Of a stretch of 64,000 bases of DNA, positions 6,506 through 61,566 are shown piece by piece (the first letter of the stretch is position 1; each line of letters starts with the position of its first letter). Location: positions 8,742,001 to 8,806,000 of the forward strand of contig OZ360232.1 in NCBI GenBank assembly GCA_977017645.1, given 5' to 3'. A model generated the notes under the pieces. That model worked only from the letters and a program-made list of their open reading frames with translations, was not told where the DNA came from and searched no databases. Source of the DNA: Torpedo marmorata. Taxonomy: Eukaryota. Made by a program: the position numbers and the translations under genes.

Positions 6506-7409
6506 CCTTGAGATGTTCAGACAGAGAATTCTTTTGACCACTCAGGCACCAATAACCATACCAATGTCAGCTAATGGGAACAGTTTTCAAAACATTTCAG
6601 TAGAGTTTAAATTTTCTTTTTCTGCTGCTTTTTTTGTCTTTTGTGTTATTCACTTTGAATTTTCAGTTTCTCGACTTATAATTGAAAACACGATTATTCA
6701 TTATCTTTGGTGCAATAATGGAGAGAACAGAACCCTTTTGTTTTCCTGTTGGGCTTGAGGAACTGTTAAACGTTCTAACGTGGTTTGACGCTACATTTTT
6801 CTCCGCGACACTTCTGGGAAACCACTTGAGAAATGTCTCTCTCCATTCTAATTTGGAATAGAGCCACTGCTTCCTGTGAATATATTCAAGCCTGAAACCA
6901 ATAGATTTATTAGATACTATGAGAATTAAAGGAAATAGGATAGTGCAGTTAAGGTAAAGAATCAATCATAATCCTCTTGAACAGAGATACAAGCTTGAAG
7001 GGCTGGAGAGACAGCTTCTCCTCCTGTTTATTTTATTATTTTACATTCCGAGGTTTATTGTATTTGGAATTGAATCTCCACATCCCGAGAACCTACGACT
7101 TTTTCAACCGTTGGTGGCCCACTTCTGAGAAAGCTTCTATTATGATCATTTTTCCAGCTTATGAAATCCCTCCCAGTAATTCCTGCACCCATTACACCCA
7201 ATCAAGACACCTTCCCAATTACTCTGTACACTGCCACCAATAGTGATGTCACATTCCAATACATTCACACCCTGCACACACCTCCCATTTCCTCCATTTT
7301 CAGACACCCATCCCTACATCCAGACCATTCCCTGGTACACTGCTCTCTCAGCTTTTCCATTACAGATACCAGTCTTTAGTTCACACCTCCCAGTATTTAT
7401 AAAACTATT

Positions 7410-47964: not shown

Positions 47965-49198
47965 CATTATTATAGGAAGGATGTGGAAGCTATGGAGAGG
48001 GTACAGAAGAGATTTACCAGGATGTTGCCTGGATTGGAAAACAAGTCTTATGAGGCAAGGTTAGCAGAGCTGGGACTTTTCTCTTTGGAGCGTAGAAGAA
48101 TGAGAGGAGACTTGATAGAGTTCTACAAGATTATGAGACGCATAGATAGGGTGGAAAGCCAGTGCCTGTTTCCCAGGGCAGGATCAGCAAACACCATGTA
48201 CAAAGTTAAGGGAGGGAAGTTTAGGGGAAACATCAGGGGTAAGTCTTTTACACAGAGAGTTGTGGGTGCCTGGAATGCCTTGCCGAGGATGGTGGTGGAG
48301 GCTGAAACATTGGGGGCATTTAAGAGACTCTTAGACAGACACATGGCTGAAAGAAAAATAGAGGGTTACGGGGTAGGGAGGGTTTAGTACTTTTTTTTTA
48401 GGAAGGAATATATGGGTCAGCACAACATCGAGGGCTGAAGTTTTAGATGTAATAGTGAACAAGGTTCTTTTGTACACTCTACGTGGCTTTTGTACACTCT
48501 ACGAGGCTTTGTCCAAAGATATATGCTTTTTGGATAAAAGTTAAAAAGTTTTTGGACAAAGTGTTAGGAATCACACTCCCAATGAATCCTATGATATTTT
48601 TGTTTGGGGATATTAAAATAATTAGTATTAAAATGAGATTAAATATGTATCAAATAGAATTTTTGTGAATTGCTTTAGCTGTTTCAAAAAAATGCATAGG
48701 TATTACATGGAAGTCCGATGTAGATTTAGGGTTAGAAAGATGGCATGCAGAACTTCGTTCATGTATACCACTTGAAAAAATTACTTATAATTTACGTAAT
48801 AAATATCATTTATTTTTGATGGTATGGAGCCCATATACAAAAATTGTGGGTTTAAAGATTTGAAGATCTCTCGATATTAGGTCTAGATGGTGAACCTGTG
48901 TTCCACAATATAATCAATATATAGTAGTTTTTATTTAGATTGACATTCTCCAATTACTATCTCTTTTGTTCTTTTTCTTTTTTTCTCTAAACTATATTAG
49001 AGTAGTAGGGGTGGGTGGGTTAGGGAGGGGAAAGGGAGGGAGGGGAGGGTGAAAATATATCACATGTATTTTGATAATTCGATATTTTATAAACATATAT
49101 TATCGTGTGATTTAAAACTTTAAATAAAATATTAAATAAACAAACATCGAGGGCCGAATGGGCCTGTACGGGGCTGCATTATTCTATGTTCTATGTTC
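47965..49198 (+). mobile_element. CR1 3' end interrupted by an L1/Tx1 fragment
   Basis: ORF 47983-48387 (ERVQKRFTRMLPG...). The tail TTCTATGTTCTATG resumes at 49143-49198. Confidence 0.9.
48440..49142 (+). mobile_element. L1/Tx1 3' fragment with 16-bp TSD
   Basis: TSD AACATCGAGGGCYGAA at 48424-39 and 49143-58; ORF2 C-terminus, G-rich 3' UTR and AATAAA. Confidence 0.88.
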
Positions 49199-49789: not shown

Positions 49790-50100
49790 TTCCCTGCAAC
49801 TGCCCAACTTGTTGAGTATTTCCAGCAAATACTATTTTTATTTGTTTTAAATGAGTAGATAATATGTTTTAAGTGTTGATGAAGAAGTTTTGGCTTGGAT
49901 ATTTCTGCAAATGTAACTGCAGTGTCATGTTGCATTAGAAGATTCATGAAACACATGGTAGTTAAAAGTGAGTGAAGATGTGTGGGTTTGAAATCAGATG
50001 GCCCAGAATTAATGGAATTGATGAAGGAATAGTGGTGCTTGGTAAGTTTCTAAAGTTCACCCAAGGGAAGAGCTAGTTGTGGATTATCAAGGTCATCATT

Positions 50101-50663
50101 TTTTAAAAAATAATTTATTTAAAATTTTAAATCACAGAATACATAAAATAAAATATGAAATTATTAATATATTTGTGATACATTTTCAGCCCCCCTCCCA
50201 CCCTTCCCTCCCCAACCCTCCCAACCACACTAATCTAATAAAATAAAATAAAATATAAAAGAAAAGAAAAGAAAAGAAAGAAAAAGATAGAGTAAGGAGA
50301 ATGTCAATCTAAAAAGAAATACATCTATAGACTAATTCTATTATGGAGGTCAGGTAGCCAGTAGATCCGATGTCTAGAGATCTTCAAATCCTTAAACCAA
50401 CAACTTTCATATATGGGCTCCAAATTTTTAAAAAGAAATGATATTTATTACGTAAATTGTAAGTAATTTTTTCAAGTGGTATACACAAACGAAGTTCTGC
50501 ATGCCATCTTTCTAACCCTAAATCTACATCAGATTTCCAAGTAATAGCAATACATTTCTTTGAAACAGCTAAAGCAATTCGCAAAAATTCTATTTGATAC
50601 ATATTTAATTTCATCTTAATACTAAATTTTCTAATATCTCCAAACACAAATATCATAGGATCC
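50101..50663 (-). mobile_element. L1/Tx1 3' fragment with 18-bp TSD
   Basis: TSD ATTATCAAGGTCATCATT at 50083-50100 and 50664-50681; ORF 50384-50689. Confidence 0.9.
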
Positions 50664-53000
50664 ATTATCAAGGTCATCATTGAGGACAAAAGGAAAGGGG
50701 TAACTTTACAGCAGGCAGAACGCAGCCACAGAGGCTCACTGTGCTATGGGCAGAGGATATTGTCTTGTACCAACAAACTTAGCAAAAGGAAAATTGTGCC
50801 AGATCATTTAATTTAATATGTAAATGTCATAATGTTCAATTCTCAAGATAATGACAATGTTGAAAAGGATTGTCATTGTGGGTATGTAAGTGTTAGAGAT
50901 AGGTTACCTTCATGTGGTGGGTGCTGGCATTGTTGCATACACTGCATATGCACAACCTTTTAAAGTTGCACATATCATGCAATTCATGTCGATGTGCACA
51001 AGTAAAACCTGCAAAAGCTAGTTTGTTGCTTGATGATGAGGGATACCTATAGTGACTTCAATCCAACAAATAGTCACTTGGAGGCTAGGTGAGATATCTG
51101 TTCTTGACGCATTTCAATTAATTTACTAACAAGTCCAATAGGTTCAAAAACTTTATTAACACACGATGACTTGTATCAATCTTCAATGACTTAAATATCT
51201 TCTTTAACGAAATGTAAACAATCCTTGATAACGATGCTTAATAACGCTCCTTTAAAATGGTCAATTAAAACTATGACGATCTCACTCACCCTCCTCTAAG
51301 TCGCCATGTTTATAATTCTTCTTCTCCGATTCGCACGCATGCTACACCACGCATACTCCACCGCGCATACTCCACCGTGTATGCTCCAGCCACTTCCCCA
51401 CTGCGCATGCGCCCGTCGGCACTCCCGCGCATGCGCAGAGTACTCAATAGGCCTAGCACGGCCTACTAATCTCTGTGACTCCTCCGACACCCGCTTGATA
51501 CATCGGAACGTCGCGATGAAGGTAGGAACCGAGCCTATGGCTCTTACAACGGCCCCTAATTATTATAACGAGACACAATGTCTTAAATAATAATTACACA
51601 ATCAATTACAATAAACATACAGTATAACATTCAAACAATATACAAATCTTCTTTCTTCTTAATATCAGAGTTTACCATCACTCTGAATCAACAAAAGTCT
51701 GTAACCTGTGTAGTATACAAAACAACAAAATAAAGTCAGTTAGTATTTATCAAAGTTATTTTATCTCCAGAATCTTTGAGTTAGAACGTCGACCAGTAAA
51801 CCTCAAATCTTCCTCAAACAAAATAGATACAGTTTTTCTTTTGAATTTAACATGAGGTATTTCTTCAGCATGTCGTTTCTATTAGGAATAATTTGAACTT
51901 TCATAACCAGATTTTGAATATTTATCTGATCCTCTCGATTTTAATAAACGAGTCTCTTTAACCACTCTGGTTTCTATTGCCTTTTCCTGCAATTCCAAAT
52001 CCAATTTTGCAACTTTCAATTCAGTCTCATTTTCTTCTGAGAAATTAATAACTTGATCTGAAGTGAAAATATCATGTGATACATTGGTACTTCTATTGTC
52101 AACCACACTATGGTAAACTTGAAATTTTTGAATTTCTTCATCTTGCTTGTTACATTGCTGCAATGCAATATCACTTTCTTTCTGCATTGTTGAGCCTTCA
52201 ATTTACATTCTAAATTGTTTTCTATATTCAGCTGTTTTGTGTTATTAACCAATAACTTGTTCTCTTTCAAAAGATTAATCTCTTCCTCCAACCTTTTACA
52301 TTTTGATCATGCTGAATCTCTTTCCTCAATAACTATTTATTTCTTCAGCATTTATTCTTTTCTTCCGCTTTCTGATTTTGTGAATTTTATTTACAATTAA
52401 ATCTTTCTGATTACTGTTTTCATGATTATCCAATATTTCCAATTACTTTTTCAACATTTTGTTCTCTGAATTCAATTGCATTAAATTATCATTCACATTC
52501 TTCTTTATTCCATCAACACAATTTTCTGCTTTCATCAGTTTTACATCACGTTGCAAGATTTCTTCATAGACTTTGTCTGCTGTAACCTCTGAACTACAAA
52601 ATCTTCGACCTTCTTCCTTGAATATTAAGTTTGTTCATTAGTCCCACCGTGCAAAAAGATGCAGTGCTGCCTGGGTCGAGAAATGCATATGTATGTACTG
52701 TTTCATCCCCTTTCTTGGTCTAGACTTGTACAGGCACTATTGAAAGTTTGCAGTTATCCACACCATCCCCAGTAAGACCACTTGTCTGAACTGAGGTTAT
52801 AACATTGTTTTCTGTTGTTTCCTTTGTTTCTATTTGCTCCTTTTCCAATTCCTTGTTTCTTTGATGGGTATGCAACATTCTAGGATGCTTCAAATTGCAT
52901 ATGTTACAATTAATTCACTTTTCGCAGTATTACTGATGTGCCCTTTACACAGACAGCTAAAACATACTCCATTTTCCTTTAAGAAAGCGATCTTCTCATT

Positions 53001-53483
53001 ATCAGAATCAGAATCAGAATCAGAATTTATTGTCATGAACAAGTCATGAAATTCGGTGTTTTGCGGCAGCATCATAGTGCAATTAACATTCATATTAACC
53101 ATCTAACGACATTACTATAAAAAATAATAAACAATAGTGCACGAAAAGTAAGGCAGTGTCTTTGGTTCATTGATTATTCAGGAATCTGATGGCAGCGGGG
53201 AAGAAGCTGTCCTTGTGCCGTTGAGTGCTCGTCTTTAGGCTCCTGTACCTTTTTCCCGATGGAAGCAGAGTGAAGAGGGCATGGCCTGGGTGGTGGGTCT
53301 TTGAGGATAGAGGCTGCTTTTTTAAGACACCGACTCATGTAGATGTCCTCGATGGAGTGAAGTTTGGTGCCTGTGATGTCACAGGCCGAGTTAACAACCC
53401 TCTGGAGTTTACTCTTGTCCTGAGAGTTGGCGCCTCCATACAAGGCAGTGATGCAACCAGCCAGAATGCTCTCCACGGTACAC
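53001..53483 (-). mobile_element. Rex1/Babar 3' fragment nested in BEL gag
   Basis: (TCAGAA)n tail; nearly identical to 59965-60433. Confidence 0.92.
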
Positions 53484-54356
53484 CTTCTTTTCCAACCGTA
53501 AACACATTTACAAAGCATGTCCACCTTTACAGAACAAACAACTTTTCTCATAAGGCAAACTTTCCTTTTCCTTATTTACTTTATCTATAACTGACACATT
53601 AGTAGCAAAAGTACTCCCTTTCAATTTCGGACTAGGCTGTGAGTTAGACCTCCTTACATCTTTTTTCCCCATTGAGTTGTCTCTGGTATTTCCATATATT
53701 AGATGTGTTTTAATGTTCACCTGTTGTTCAAGGAAATCTACCAAATCCTTTAAGGTAGCTCTTTGATCGTATTTTTCCTGTATATCACAAGCCAAATTTC
53801 TCTATCTATCTCACATCTTGTAAGGTAATTTATCTAAGATGATTCACATATTACCAGGCACATTAAGCTCACGAATATTATCTATATATTCCATGGCATT
53901 ACAACATCCTCTTAAAAAGAGAGTGTATGCTTGTAGAGCCTTTACATCATTCAGTTTTATTGATGTCCATTTAAGAGCTTTATCCATATAAGCTAAAGCA
54001 ATTTGACGCTTGTTGCCAAAATGCTGTTCTAGTAAAGACTTAGCTCTTTCTAATCCTCTTTCGAGGACATATGTTGACAACTCTTTACAAGTTCTCTTGG
54101 ATGACCTTCTGTGAACATTTCCAAATAATAAAAACAGTCTTCAGGGTCTTGGCATTTATTTTCAATATTGCGTCTAAAAGATCTCATGAACGCTTGGTAC
54201 TGAAGTGAATCACCATCAAAAGTTTGTATCCCTTTCTTTGGCAAAGAAGAGAGAGACTGTAACTGAATCAATGATGCAGCAATTTCATTTTGTCTTCTCT
54301 TGGATGACAATACATTGCTCTGTTCACCACCTCGTTACAGGTAATGTATCTGGAAA

Positions 54357-56635
54357 AAAACACAAATGCTGGAGAAACTCAGCAGGTCAAACAGTGTCTC
54401 TTATGTAGCAAAGGTAGAAATACATAACCGACGTTTCGGGCTTGAGCCCTTCATCAAAGTATGAGAAAATGCCGGCAGGCGTCCGAACAAAAGAGTGAGG
54501 GGGGGAGGGGGGGGTGGCAAAGGCAGGTGATGATAGGTGGAGAAAGGAGGGAGGGGACAGCAGAAAAGAGGGGGAGGAGGGATGGCTGGGTGGGTGGAAA
54601 AAAACTGGAAGGACAGGTGAGGGGGGAGGGGAAGGTAAAGACAAGCAGGTGTAGTGGAAAGCAGAAAAGTCAATGTTAATGCTATCTGGCTGGAGAGTGC
54701 CCAGACGGAAAATGAGATGCTGTTCCTCCAATTTGCAGGTAGTCTGGGTGGGATAATACATGAGGCCATGGGCAGACATGTGAGTGTGGGAGTGTGACTC
54801 GGAATTGAAATGGTCGCTGTTGTTTCCGTCGGAGAGGAGGTGCTCAGCGAAGCGATCTCCCAATCTACGACCGGTCTCTCCGATGTAGAGAAAGCCACAA
54901 AGGGTGCACCGGATGCAGTAAATAAGTTCTCTGGATGTATAAGTGAAGTGTAGCTTCACCTGAAGGTCTCTGGATATCAGATCTGACTGGTGAACCTATT
55001 TTCCACAATAAAATTAATCTATAGTTGTTCTTTTTTAGATTGACATTCTCCTTACTCTATCTTTTTCTTTCTTACTTTTTATTTTATTTTATAGATTAGT
55101 AGGGGTGGGAGGGTTAGGGTGGGGAGGGAGGTTGGGGGCGAGAAAATGTATCACATGTATTTTGATAATTTTGCATTTTATTCAGTGTATTGTGTGATTT
55201 AAAATTTTAAATAAAATATTTTTTTAAAAAGTGTAGCTTCACTTGAAAGGCCTGTTTGGGGCCCCGGACCGTGGTGAGGGGGGAGGTGTGGGCGCAGGTG
55301 TTGCACCTCCTGCGGGCACAGGGAAAGGTGCCGGGGGTGCGATGGGTGGGGAGGGATGAATGCACGAGGGAATCGCGAGGGAGCGGTCCCAGCGGAAGGC
55401 CGAGAGGTGAGGAGAAGGAAAAATGTGTCTGGTGGTGGGATCCTGTAGTAAGTGCCGGAAATTCCGGTGGATAATGTGTTGGATGTGGAAGCTGGTGGGG
55501 TGGTAGGTGAGGATGAGGGGGATTCTATGTTTGTTGCGTCTAGGGGCAGAGGGGGCCAGGGCAGATGAGCGGGAAATGGAGGAGATGCGGGTGAGGGCTG
55601 AGTTGATGGTGGTGGAGGGGAAGCCACGTTTGTGGAAGAAGGCAGACATTTCAGAAGATCTCATCTTGGGATCAGATGCGGCGGAGACGGAGAAATTGAG
55701 AGAAGGGGATGGAATCCTTGCAGGGGATAGGGTGTGAGGAAGTGTAGTCCAGATAGTTGTGGGAGTTGAAGGGTTTGTAGTAAATGTTGGTGGAAAGCTT
55801 GTCTCCCGAGATGGAGACAGAGAGATCCAGGAAGGGGAGTGTGTTATCGGAGATGGACCAGGTGAGTTTGAGATCGGGGTGGAAGGTAGATGTGAAGTGG
55901 ATGAAGTTGACAAGCTCATCGCGGGTGCATGAGGCAGCCCCGATGTAGTCGTCGATATAACGGAGGAAGAGATGAGGGGTCTTGCCTGTGTAGGCTTACA
56001 GCATGGATTGCTCCACAAAGCCCACAAACAGGCAGGCATAGCTGGGACCCATGCGGGTACCCATGGCTACTCCTTTTATTTGGAGGAAGTGGGATGAGTT
56101 GAAGGAGAAGTTATTGAGAGTGAGGACAAGTTCTGCCAGGCGGAGGAGGGTGGTGGTAGAGGGTGACTGGTCGGGTCTTTGGTCCAGGAAGAAGCGAAGT
56201 GCTTTCAGACCTTTTGTGTGGGGGATAGAGGTATAAAGGGATTGGACATCCATGGTGAAGATGATGCGGTCCGGTTCAGGGAATCTGAAGTCATTGAGGA
56301 GATGGAGGGCATGTGAGGTGTCGCGGATGTAGGTGGGGATGGATTGGACCAAGGGAGAAAAGATGGAGTCAAGGTAAGATGAAACTAGTTCGGTGGGGCA
56401 GGAGCAGGCAGAAACAATGGGTCTGCCACCACCCCCCCCCCCCACTTCCCCCCCTCACTCTTTTGTTCGGACGCCTGCCGGCATTTTCTCATTCTTTGAT
56501 GAAGGGCTCAAGCCCAAAACGTCGGTTATGTAGTTCTACCTTTGCTACATAAAAGACACTGTTTGACCTGCTGAGTTTCTCCAGCATTTGTGTTTTTTAC
56601 TTCACCCACGGTGTCTACAGATCTTCGTGTTTTAC
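54357..56635 (-). mobile_element. Penelope-like element nested in BEL gag, with inverted terminal repeat
   Basis: RT motifs (RPIVS, TMDVQSLYT, GVAMGT, RYIDD) and GIY-YIG (LIYCIRC...YIGET). Inverted end copy at about 56430-56635. TSD TAATGTATCTGGAAA at 54342-56 and 56636-50. Confidence 0.93.
54965..55228 (+). mobile_element. L1/Tx1 3' UTR fragment nested in Penelope
   Basis: Similar to 48870-49140. TSD AAGTGTAGCTTCACYTGAA at 54946-64 and 55229-47. Confidence 0.85.
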
Positions 56636-58656
56636 TAATGTATCTGGAAACCTCACTAGTGCAGTTTCTCCCATATTTCTGATGCTTGACTCGAACGCCA
56701 AAAATCTGCATCGTTTGACCGAACCCACGTCGCAGACTTGTCTTCGGATGTTAGCACTGGTACATGTGACTTGATAACACCATGCTCTTGAAGGCTTTGT
56801 CCTTGTATTTGCATGTCTTGTACCCGTGGTACTAAAATATCTACCTTTTTGGTTGATTTCTTTTCCTGTGGCTCTTTTTAAAAATATAACTCTTATCATC
56901 GCACACTTTGGATAATTTACTCCGAGCACCAGATACCATTGAGCCTTCTAGTAGCTTCATTCTGGCCCTGGCAATAGCAATGTTTGCTTCCAACTCCTGC
57001 TGCTCCTTTCTCTGCCTTAGCTGCTCCTCCTGTCCTTCTAAAATATGTTTATACTTACGTAAGCGTTTTTTGTTGCGCAAGAAGAGTGGCCAAGTCAACT
57101 TCAACCTTTGTACGTGACGATGCAGAACTTGAAGTATGAGAAACTCTGGAGTTTGAACCAGAAAAACTTTGTTTGCTTCTCCTGCTTTCAACATTTGTCA
57201 CATTCTTGTATTTCATCCTGCAGGTCAGATGTTGTCTTCTTACTTACCTCTTTCTCCAATTCGAATTGTACTTCCTTTGCATCTTCATCCTCTTTGTTTT
57301 GATGACACATTTTCAGCCATTTCCACGTTGCCGTCTTCGTGTTCAGTCGTTGTCTTCTGCAATAAGTTTGCAATGTTTTCATTCCCATCAACTGAAGCCG
57401 CTGCCACTTCTACCTTTGCCAGCTTCAGTCTTGCAATGAGAATACTTTTATTTCCACTTATATCTAGTTTCAGTCGCTTCAATTCTTCTTTGAGATCCAC
57501 AACCTTCATGTCTTCAATACGTTGGTCCTCAACAGCAATATCAGCGGATGCTGCGGCCATTTTACTCGTCTTGTTCCACCGTCCTTCGAGCATACACAAC
57601 ACGAGCCAAATCAATAATCCCCAATGGACTAGCGACAGCAAATCCAAACTCTCTTCAAACTTGCCAAAGATACACAGAAGGAGTCCACAGACTTATGCCT
57701 ACCACTTCAGATGGCTGTAATGTGCTGCTATTCACAAACGTGTTTCCACCGCAGCATCCGTCAATAATATCACTGATTTTCAAGAAATGGTTTCTCCAAC
57801 GTATTTATAGGACACTTTACTATAAGATTAGAAGCTCTGAATCCCTCTCTGGCGGTTACTCATGGCAGATGGATGTGGATTACAAACTGCCCCTAACTTG
57901 AGGCATCTCCAAGATGGCCACCATTTTATTTTAAATATCAGTCCAAAGCACAGAGAGATTATTCTATCTTCTTTCCTTCAATTTTCTGTTCCAAACAATA
58001 AGTTTTCATTGACTAAAATATAGTGACTTCAATCCAACAACTAGTCACTTGGAGGCTAGGTGAGATATCTGTTCTTGACATGTTTCGATTAATTTACTAA
58101 CAAGTCCATAGGTTCAAAAACTTTATTAACACACGATGACTTGTAGCAATCTTCAATGACTTAAATATCTTCTTTAGCGAAATGTAAACAATCCTTGATA
58201 ACGATGCTTAATAACGATTCTTAATAACGCTCCTTTAAAACGGTTAATGAAAACTATGACGATCTCACTCACCCTCCTCTAAGTCGCCATGTTTATAATA
58301 CTTCTTCTCCGATTCACGCGCATGCTACACCGCGCATACTCCACCGCGCATGCTCCAGCCACTTCCCCACTGCGCATGCGCCCGTCAGCACTCCCGCGCA
58401 TGTGCAGAGTACTCAATAGGCCTAGCACAGCCTACTAATCTCTGTGACTCCTTCGACACCCGCTTGATACATCGGAACGCCGCGATGAAGGTAAGAACCG
58501 AGCCTATGGCTCTTACAATACCTTTCCATTAAAAATGATTGCCTCACTACAGCAGAGCACGTGATACTGAAATAATTTGTCTGATATCATGGCTGTTGTA
58601 CTATCCTAGAAATTATTTAGTGTAACCTCCAATGTGAAGTTGATTTCTTTTTCTCA

Positions 58657-58930: not shown

Positions 58931-61566
58931 TGTAGCAACCTTTGAGTGAGTATATGTTGTAGATACACACAGGCTTGGTACGCCGTGTATGATGTCATGA
59001 CGCACATATATAGTGTGGCGCGGGAAACAATCTTTAGTTTAGTAATAAAGAATGAATGAAGCACCACGTCTCCGTGTGCTTGTGTATATCTAAGCCTAGA
59101 ATACACTACAGATTGGTGACGAGGATCGAAACGAACTTCCCTGACAAGGAAAGGGAGGAGAAGAAAAGAAGAAAGGAAGAAAAGGAAAACACAAGGCTAC
59201 CACAGCAGTGAGCCCCACAGGCTCACTCACAGAGAAGAAAGAAAGGAAAACGCGGGAAACTACTCAAAATGGCGGACAGCCGTTTTGGAGAGTACAAAGA
59301 CTCAGAAGACTGGTATGACGACATTGAAAGATTCAATATGTACTGTATTGCCCACAATGTAGTTGATACACCAGTAACCAAGAGGAAACAAGCTCTGTTT
59401 CTAAGTGAAGTGGGAAGCAAAACTTTTAAACTTATGAAGTCCCTTTTGGCACCTGAAAGACCAAGTGCTAAGACTTATGATGAACTGTGCATGGTAATAG
59501 GAGAACACCTATTCCCCAGACCAGTAATAATTGCAGAACGTTATAAGTTTTATTCCAGAAAGCAAATGGCAGGCGAACCCATAAGCGAATATTTAGCTGA
59601 ATTGCACAGGCTATCAGAATGTTGTGAGTTCGGAGAATTCTTGAATGATGCATTAAGAGACTGATTGGTCATGGGTTTGGCTGACCGCAACACCCAACAA
59701 CAATTACTAAGTAAACCAGATTTAGACATTAAGTCTGCTTATGCTACAGCATTGAGTTTCAAAATGGCCAGCCAAAATATCGATATTATACAAGGAGAGC
59801 CCTCAACCGTGGGGTTTGTTACAAAATCTAAACGACAAGAATGTTTCCGCTGCAGGAAAAGCAACCACAGCCCTGACAACTGTTATTTTAAAAAAGCCAA
59901 ATGCCATTTATGAGACAAAGAAGGTCACATCAAATCCAGATGTCCAAACAGAAGAAGACGAAGGATCAGAATTTATTGTCATGAACAAGTCATGAAATTC
60001 GGTGTTTTGCGGCAGCATCATAGTGCAATTAACATTCATATTAACCATCTAACGACATTACTATAAAAAATTATAAACAATAGTGCACGGAAAGTAAGGC
60101 AGTGTCTTTGGTTCATTGATTATTCAGGAATCTGATGGCAGCAGGGAAGAAGCTGTCCTTGTGCCGTTGAGTGCTCGTCTTTAGGCTCCTGTACCTTTTT
60201 CCCGATGGAAGCAGAGTGAAGAGGGCATGGCCTGGGTGGTGGGGGTCCTTGAGGATAGAGGCTGCTTTTTTAAGACACCGCCTCATGTAGATGTCCTCGA
60301 TTGAGTGAAGTTTGGTGCCTGTGATGTCACAGGCCGAGTTAACAACCTTCTGGAGTTTACTCTTGTCCTGGGAGTTGGTGCCTCCATACCAGGCAGTGAT
60401 GCAACCAGCCAGAATGCTCTCCACGGTACACCTGTAGAAGTTTACGAGAGTCTTTGGTGACATACCGAATCTCCGCAAACACCTCACAAAGTATAGCCGC
60501 TGACGACCCGTCTTTGTGATTGCATCCACGTGGATGCTCCAGGACAGATCCTCGGAGATGTTGACACCCAGGAATTTGAAGTTCTTGACCCTCTCCACGA
60601 CTGAGCCCTCGATGAGGACTGGGTCGTGTTCCCCTGACTTCCTCCTGAAGTCCACAATCATCTCCTTGGTTTTGCTGACTCTCCTTGGTTAGAATAATAT
60701 ACCAAAAAAGAAATAAGCAAAACCCAAAATACAGCAGTCAACCGTCCAAAGTGAAAAATATAGAAGAGAAGGACGAAACCCCTAGCGGTGATTCTACTAA
60801 TGACTCGGAGGGGGAAAAGGCTGTGGATGTAATGCAGGCAGTGGATGTAATGCATGTCCGCAGTGTGGGGGACAAGAAATCTGAAATTTATGTAGAGGTT
60901 AAAATCAATGACAAACCTCTTCAGATGGAGTTGGACACCGGATCATCGGTGACTTTAATGCCAAAACACATAAAAGCACAATTATTGCCCAACCTTACCA
61001 TAAAACATGGTATTGAAAACGGTCACAGGGGAAAAAGTCAAAGTGATTGGTAAGTGCAAAGTAAAAGTCGAATATAAGGGTAAGATCGCAAAAGACTTAC
61101 CCCTCGTCATCATTGACACAAAGGGACATGCATTGTTCGGAAGAAACTGGTTATCACACATCCAATTGGATTGGATGGAAATCGGGTCAGTACTGAAGAT
61201 TCATACTGAAAATGAACCAAAACTGACACAAGTGCTTAAAAAGTATCAACCCTTATTCGGAAAAGGCCTCGGGAAAATCAGAGTCCAAGCAAAGTTACAA
61301 TTGAAACCTGAAGCTGAACCAAAGTTCTATAAGCCAAGGACAGTGCCTTTTGCAATAAAAGGAAAGATTGAAGCAGAACTCAACAGATTAGAAAACGAAG
61401 GAATCATTGAAAAGCTTCAATATAGTGACTGGGCAGCTCCCATTGTGCCAGTCCGAAAACCGAATGGAGAAATCCGAATTTGCGGGGATTATAAAGTCAC
61501 CGTTAATCAAGCTCTGCAAATACCTGAACATCCCATGCCGAGAGCGGAGGAGTTATTCCAATCCCT
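58931..61566 (+). mobile_element. Gypsy (Mag-like) element, 5' part
   Basis: LTR 58931-59110 (TGTAG...CTACA), PBS TGGTGACGAGGAT (59114-59126, tRNA-Ser-type), gag from 59269, CFRC knuckle, protease LDTGS and RT start WAAPIVPV...RICGDYK. Confidence 0.9.
59965..60680 (-). mobile_element. Rex1/Babar 3' fragment nested in Gypsy gag
   Basis: ORF 60113-60661. Same family as 9431-11382. Confidence 0.93.

Follow-up and report, generated by a model that had tools for sequence, protein, structure and literature searches.

A BEL/Pao retrotransposon of Torpedo marmorata with a primer-binding site complementary to its own LTR: candidate self-priming in an aquatic lineage

In the window, that is, the whole stretch of 64,000 nt of Torpedo marmorata DNA that was analyzed, we identified a defective, internally deleted BEL/Pao LTR retrotransposon on the minus strand. 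Its features are given below, approximately in the direction of transcription, with the basis of each assignment.

58518-58522, minus strand: target-site duplication GGTAT, 5' side (sequence; repeated at 51047-51043)
58019-58517, minus strand: 5' LTR, TG...CACTATA (sequence and copy comparison)
58292-58297, minus strand: TATAAA (sequence)
58261-58277, minus strand: purine-rich tract 5' of the primer, a predicted pairing partner of U5 58069-58051 (as stable in 4 of 200 shuffles)
[quoted passage not shown]
Between 58243 and 58242, minus strand: predicted cut, AC^C (sequence comparison)
58122-58127, minus strand: AATAAA poly(A) signal, 115 nt 3' of the predicted cut (sequence)
58051-58069, minus strand: U5 stretch, complement of the purine-rich tract (pairing prediction)
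58022-58049, minus strand: U5-end hairpin with 7-bp arms, 58049-58043 and 58028-58022 (compensated letters in sister families)
58014-58018, minus strand: 5-nt spacer from the LTR end to the PBS, 0-7 nt in relatives (sequence)
58001-58013, minus strand: PBS, non-tRNA and self-complementary (sequence)
56637-57692, minus strand: broken 5' gag with SAP domain (PF02037, E 1.6e-9)
About 54357-56636, minus strand: nested Penelope-like insertion with RT-like frames, GIY-YIG and inverted ends (domain search and relatives)
52599-54356, minus strand: broken gag core, Cys-His region and protease start (comparison with relatives)
51550-51557, minus strand: polypurine-tract-like AGGGGCCG, common to most relatives (sequence)
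51048-51548, minus strand: 3' LTR, in which the primer segment recurs at 51272-51260 (sequence)

The LTRs measure 499 and 501 nt, are identical in 467 of 487 aligned columns (95.9%) and have GGTAT on either flank of the element; the LTR end reads CACTATA in the window copy and CACTACA in many other copies of the family. A SAP DNA-binding domain forms the N-terminus of the Gag (57692-57285), as it does in the sister copy L047, and the gag core is split by a second insertion at about 53003-53482. Compared with five relatives from the same genome, the window copy is missing RT, RNase H and integrase, and without pol it could have moved only with help in trans. The roughly 840 nt found in place of pol (52598-51758) have no match in five sister copies and hold a charged, coiled-coil-like open frame (52202-51882). 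The element was placed in BEL/Pao because of the protein domains of L047, in which a frame of 2080 residues contains DUF1759, RT, peptidase A17, integrase and DUF5641 in the order PR-RT-RH-IN, and in which the gag DNA is 78-93% identical to that of the window element; the domain search of this sister protein gave no match to a chromodomain. Among the BEL/Pao characters, LTRs with a 5-bp target-site duplication are thus seen in the window element itself, the domain order is seen through L047, and the 18-nt PBS for the 3' end of a host tRNA, as given in the ICTV profile, is lacking in the window element. A first look for the family in the 6.2-Gb genome gave 6618 peptidase A17 candidates, 150 of which were scored, and named homologues come from bony fishes, a skate, molluscs, an echinoderm, a hemichordate and cnidarians.

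At the PBS of the window element, TGG is absent. The 13-mer GTCAATGAAAACT (minus strand, 58013-58001) starts 5 nt (TTTTA) past the 5' LTR end at 58019, and a complement pairing with it at 12 of 13 positions is present in the 5' LTR (AGTTTTCATTAAC, 58255-58243) and in the 3' LTR (AGTTTTAATTGAC, 51272-51260), with the mismatch at a different position in each. The original prediction, made from the letters of this stretch, had proposed self-priming from these observations; its coordinates, including that of the TATAAA, are all correct, and its statements on the missing TGG site and on the two differing mismatches are borne out. When the LTR was dinucleotide-shuffled, a match of 12/13 or better 0-8 nt past the LTR was obtained in 4 of 1500 cases. 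A comparison with host tRNAs, proposed at the same time, has now been made, and none of 33 host tRNA genes, representing only nine isoacceptors, matches the PBS with its 3' end; inside the tRNA bodies of the same genes the best match was 6 nt. Priming by a tRNA 3' end was rejected on account of the missing TGG and the lack of a matching gene among these 33. Single-strand folding of 58275-57975 gave a z of -0.35 and did not draw the primer-PBS helix; this copy carries a mismatch there, and the helix would cross a pairing between U5 and the sequence upstream of the primer, an arrangement that the program cannot draw.

In the Torpedo marmorata genome, 54 distinct copies of the family were compared, 30 of them found with the window element as query and 24 with a variant copy, after removal of six duplicates. 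Perfect helices extend to 13 nt or more in 25 copies and to at least 10 nt in 46, and remain below 10 nt in eight. Pairs 1-10 are Watson-Crick in 51-54 of the 54. By alignment, pair 11 is T:A in 32 copies, C:G in 14 (17 by an anchored count) and otherwise in eight, the C:G form probably being one compensated subfamily that the second query over-sampled. Pair 12 is G:C in 41 of 54 copies and often not Watson-Crick, and no pairing is seen at pairs 14-16. These counts bear on the predicted ancestral match of 13 out of 13. In view of the behavior of pair 12, and of sister families that pair over only 10-11 nt, the working helix is estimated at about 11 nt.

In subfamilies of the same genome the letters differ and the pairing persists over 10-12 nt, as illustrated by the compensated sequences GTCAATAAAG/CTTTATTGAC and GTCAATAAAAG/CTTTTATTGAC. 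The LTR of L033 has no blastn match to the window LTR, yet the pairing is kept, also in most of 20 copies. A scan of 28 loci gave at least 10 nt in 20, a missing PBS motif in four and a miss in four. Two of the misses, L046 and L042, have a decayed or truncated 5' LTR and an intact 3' copy. In L234 the primer segment is non-matching and in L238 a terminal mismatch is found, and since the departure sits in both LTRs, these two elements inserted without a perfect cis match; they are possible recombinants or trans-primed insertions. The spacer slides among the sisters (5 nt in the window, 7 in L034, 2 in L035, 0 in L048 and 6 in L050), and the LTR often ends in TA, not CA, which suggests a loose integrase cut in an A/T-rich spacer. 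For L038/L226, the most distant family in the genome, the LTR ends could not be placed.

A profile of 42 RT-RNase H sequences identified 95 loci in metagenome and genome collections, presumably from animal host DNA. One locus per family was scored, 35 in all; the other 60 comprise 23 with a short upstream sequence, nine repeat families and 28 without an LTR end or candidate. Together with six elements from the Torpedo marmorata genome, 41 elements were available, and for each of them we recorded the longest perfect complement starting 0-8 nt past the LTR, which could be uninterrupted or span a GT[AG]AG...YAG junction. A complement of 10 nt or longer is provided by the element's own LTR in 39 of 41 cases (11 nt, the mode, in 21), a count that is circular for the 19 elements in which the LTR end was placed with help of the pairing, whereas the LTRs of other families provide at least 10 nt in 24 of 1586 pairs and at least 11 nt in six. 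In the remaining 22 elements the LTR ends were taken from LTR-LTR divergence and nudged by at most 11 nt to the nearest CA or TA, and of these independently bounded elements 20 have at least 10 nt (15 of 17 outside the Torpedo marmorata genome). The exceptions are L138, with 10/11 across a junction and one mismatch, and L112, with 7 nt, which is also the sole element of the 41 with TGG within the first 10 nt. The helix end beside U5 is AC in 38 of 40 elements (in three of them once a single paired T is trimmed), and the base after it is C in 32 of 40. Across elements, the spacer from the LTR end to the PBS is 0-7 nt, and a poly(A) signal is found 1-178 nt past the cut. The PBS letters vary among 28 groups and always go with the LTR of the same element. 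Letters of PBS and LTR thus change together within the family, across sisters and across hosts, and the covariation that had been put forward as a check on the prediction is present at all three levels. Scans of viral contigs gave no loci, and no tRNA-primed BEL family was found that could serve as a negative control. Fifteen of the BEL/Pao loci, L131-L145, are in contigs of bacterial metagenome-assembled genomes and are most likely mis-binned animal host DNA.

In 19 of the 41 elements the best complement spans the junction of a GT-AG intron within the LTR. These introns are 76-1022 nt long, with GTAAG or GTGAG as donor and a pyrimidine-rich acceptor, and they sit inside the primer, 4-11 nt ahead of the cut. 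For 16 of these 19 families a complement of only 6-8 nt is available in the unspliced LTR, as against 11-15 nt across the junction. In L107, for example, AAAGCT and TCAAAC on the two sides of gtaagt..ttcag would be joined against the PBS GTTTGAAGCTTT, and in L094 CAAA and TTCGAAC on the two sides of gtaagt..tatag against GTTCGAATTTG. Between L132 and L133 the donor-side letters differ (TAA and CAC, respectively) and the PBS letters differ to match, a compensatory change across the junction. The 5' LTR copy of L081 (1-214) lacks exactly the 117-nt GT-AG intron of the 3' LTR copy (6769-7265); the contig may be a chimeric assembly, and the removal of the intron is precise. A second donor-like GTAAG further upstream in the LTRs of L107, L114 and L135 hints at more than one LTR intron.

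A splice-made primer was considered for the window family and rejected. Only 19 nt separate the donor-like GTGAGT inside the purine-rich tract (58272-58267) from the AG ahead of the helix, a pyrimidine tract is lacking, and most sisters do not have this AG; no usable intron precedes the primer. Two sets of contigs compared with 57800-58600 of the window and with L035 showed no GT-AG joint and no RNA start or end, a result that has no bearing on expression or splicing. In a quick, midpoint-rooted tree of 47 RT-RH rows, a single clade (SH-aLRT 98) unites the same-genome families with nine fish-like loci; 15 of its members are contiguous and one is unscored. This clade is nested among spliced lineages, and on this tree, which holds the fetched loci only, the contiguous state corresponds to six changes. 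The window clade is intron-free, and from its position we infer loss of the intron over repeated gain.

Additional pairings surround the primer-PBS helix. After an A-rich bulge of about 2-5 nt, bases upstream of the primer form a second short helix with bases 3' of the PBS, which reaches at least 4 bp in 19 of 40 elements, compared with 10.7% among 1502 cross pairs (0 of 20000 permutations; 0 of 5000 when the element's own partner was shuffled). When one element per group was taken, the bases 15-22 nt 5' of the cut gave 98 bp with the PBS 3' side against 64 after shuffling (0 of 5000). This second helix has only 2 bp in the window family and 5 bp in most copies of the L033 family. In the window, the 33 nt upstream of the primer are predicted to pair with U5 at -28.1 kcal/mol, which was reached in 4 of 200 shuffles; over 25 groups the corresponding Stouffer z is -4.8, the pairing being clear in seven and absent in many. 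The U5-end hairpin has compensated letters in the same-genome families and in L052 and is weak overall (585 of 20000). A duplex of the Tf1 type, between the PBS 3' side and the loop, was not seen (12911 of 20000 permutations). As U5 lies past the poly(A) signal, the pairing of the upstream sequence with U5 is possible only at the RNA 5' end. The second helix and the pairing with U5 are two indirect signs that the transcript start is upstream of the primer, probably by some tens of nt. The TATAAA, which the original prediction had used as a marker of the start site, was discarded in this role, since it is missing there in all five sister subfamilies aligned. In U3, 58410-58315 contain several GCGCATGCGC-like repeats, followed by a YY1-like motif at 58294-58285. 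The repeats resemble NRF1 sites, and the YY1-like motif is overlapped by the TATAAA; the two together would put the start near 58300-58320.

Judged from these comparisons, it is likely that this BEL/Pao lineage primes minus-strand DNA synthesis with its own RNA, the PBS pairing with a segment of its own LTR and not with a tRNA. The transcript would fold back so that the LTR segment anneals to the PBS, with the upstream part of the transcript paired to U5 and to the bases 3' of the PBS. The element's RNase H would then cut after the conserved AC and free a 3'-OH, by analogy with the RNase H cleavage of Tf1 as given in the accessible part of the source (PMC5341516). RT would extend this end through the spacer, U5 and R to the cut, strand transfer to the 3' R would follow, and the LTR would be rebuilt from the 3' copy. 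Under this model reverse transcription of the 5' LTR ends at the cut and never reaches the sequence 5' of it, which would explain the introns inside the primer: an intron can persist there if the 3' copy is unspliced, and splicing of the 3' copy would yield intron-free lineages such as that of the window. With more reserve, we favor as the reasonably probable overall reading a large aquatic BEL/Pao clade that has given up tRNA priming and uses a self-primer cut from within its own leader, with a primer built by the host spliceosome from two LTR exons in many lineages and with the window family as an intron-free descendant. Faithful reproduction of the element would then be left only to RNAs in which the 5' LTR has been spliced and the 3' LTR has not.

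With regard to how the 3' copy avoids splicing, the main alternative is a primer supplied in trans, in which the same LTR sequence comes from the second genome copy in the particle or from a short LTR-only transcript, spliced in many families. This is a variant of self-priming that overlaps the preferred reading, and as a separate explanation we consider it unlikely. The position of the poly(A) signal, 1-178 nt past the cut, makes LTR-only RNAs possible, the insertion of L234 and L238 without a perfect cis match points in the same direction, and the need for an unspliced genomic 3' copy would be eased; the upstream-U5 pairing and the U5-end hairpin, however, suit an intramolecular fold.

A strict Tf1 geometry, with a start that coincides with the helix or lies no more than a few bases from it and the capped RNA 5' end as primer, appears quite unlikely. 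The modal helix of 11 nt has the length of the Tf1 helix, the window family has only a weak second helix, and at -13 an A is found in 30 of 40 elements and a pyrimidine-A step in 16 of 40, which could point to an initiator. Against this geometry are the two pairings formed by sequence upstream of the primer, with the PBS 3' side and with U5, the lack of a conserved TATA, and the first exons of 3-9 nt that it would require in the spliced families. The self-priming proposed originally is backed by covariation at every level, but not in the form borrowed from Tf1 with the primer at the RNA 5' end.

It is also quite unlikely that the pairing is structural, serving packaging, dimerisation or translation control, with priming left to a host RNA such as an internal tRNA fragment. 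The other leader pairings do indicate a structured region, the tRNA comparison is partial, with nine isoacceptors, and half-tRNA priming is described for copia lineages in the accessible text of PMC6317226. A structural role is, however, difficult to combine with PBS letters that differ among 28 groups and always track their own LTR, or with a helix that starts 0-7 nt past U5 and has a nearly fixed AC end, as expected of a required position of the primer 3' end; the pairing would also fill the site needed by a host primer, and the best match within tRNA bodies is 6 nt. Chance complementarity in AT-rich sequence, for which it can be said that a single 12/13 match is only moderately rare (4/1500) and that 24 of 1586 cross-family pairs reach 10 nt, has a negligible probability, being refuted by the covariation, by its recurrence, in other letters, among 20 of the 22 elements whose ends were placed independently, and by junctions that fall on canonical donor and acceptor sites in 19 families.

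Self-priming from the element's own RNA, as preferred here, differs from what is described for the group. According to the ICTV profile, Belpaoviridae have an 18-nt PBS for host tRNA-Arg or tRNA-Gly and are primed by host tRNA (PMC8742986). The elements studied here resemble Belpaoviridae/Semotivirus in their LTRs, the gag Cys-His region, the PR-RT-RH-IN order of intact sisters and the 5-bp target-site duplication, and they differ in that 40 of 41 are without TGG. An element-encoded primer would have a parallel within BEL/Pao: Cer7 of Caenorhabditis elegans, a member of the BEL group, is described as carrying a tRNA-like primer sequence of its own. In Cer7 this would be a tRNA-like copy near the 3' end, as opposed to an LTR segment of about 11 nt here. 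Self-priming is described for Tf1/sushi elements in the accessible parts of PMC10085805 and PMC4600332, and the same limited portion of PMC6317226 predicts it for Tcn1 and the plant TAR elements (Ty1/copia) from at least 10 bp starting 0-5 bp past the 5' LTR. The window family shows the same sequence pattern; TAR and Tcn1 belong to other superfamilies, and an intron-split primer is not mentioned in that portion (PMC6317226). As far as the available text of the sources goes, Tf1, Tf2, Tj1 and Tosmo share with our elements the lack of a tRNA site, a U5-adjacent PBS that pairs with an LTR-derived segment and additional duplexes around the central one (PMC10085805, PMC4600332, PMC5341516).

The system works like Tf1 but stands outside the Tf1/sushi group. 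A PBS of at least 10 nt beside U5 that matches the element's own LTR, as in that group, is found here. The Tf1/sushi elements have a Metaviridae chromovirus Pol, whereas ours have a Pao peptidase A17, DUF1759 and DUF5641 and no chromodomain match. In Tf1, to the extent covered by the available descriptions, the primer is the RNA 5' end and the LTR sequence that enters the two flanking duplexes is downstream of the primer. In the present elements, sequence upstream of the primer takes part in the flanking pairings, no duplex of the PBS 3' side with the loop was seen, and a splice junction is required in many relatives; the three-duplex pretzel of Tf1 is thus not found, given the 12911/20000 for the loop duplex and the 585/20000 for the U5-end hairpin. 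The accessible portions of the Sinbad paper and of the 2011 BEL/Pao survey contain no occurrence of PBS, tRNA or priming, and those of PMC3601003, PMC11042837, PMC6934838, PMC8220671 and PMC3286476 hold nothing on BEL priming. Full-text searches of freely available papers gave no BEL/Pao self-priming and no splice-made primer.

If the preferred reading is true, it overturns the stated rule of host tRNA primers in Belpaoviridae and adds a further origin of self-priming, outside chromoviruses and copia and with a different RNA architecture. In the relatives, the initiation of reverse transcription would depend on host splicing, and no such control point appears in the literature searched. The pairing also offers an annotation rule for BEL elements recorded without a PBS, and such elements would be predicted to evade silencing by tRNA fragments that target tRNA-type primer sites.

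Other features were noted in the window. The Penelope-like insertion has inverted ends of 163 nt and carries an AT-rich repeat that recurs at 48861-49140 and 50099-50315. The 480-nt repeat within gag (53003-53485) recurs 7 kb off at 59949-60433 with 96-97% identity. Just upstream of the element, on the other strand, an open frame at 59212-59664 presumably resembles the start of a gypsy-type Gag.
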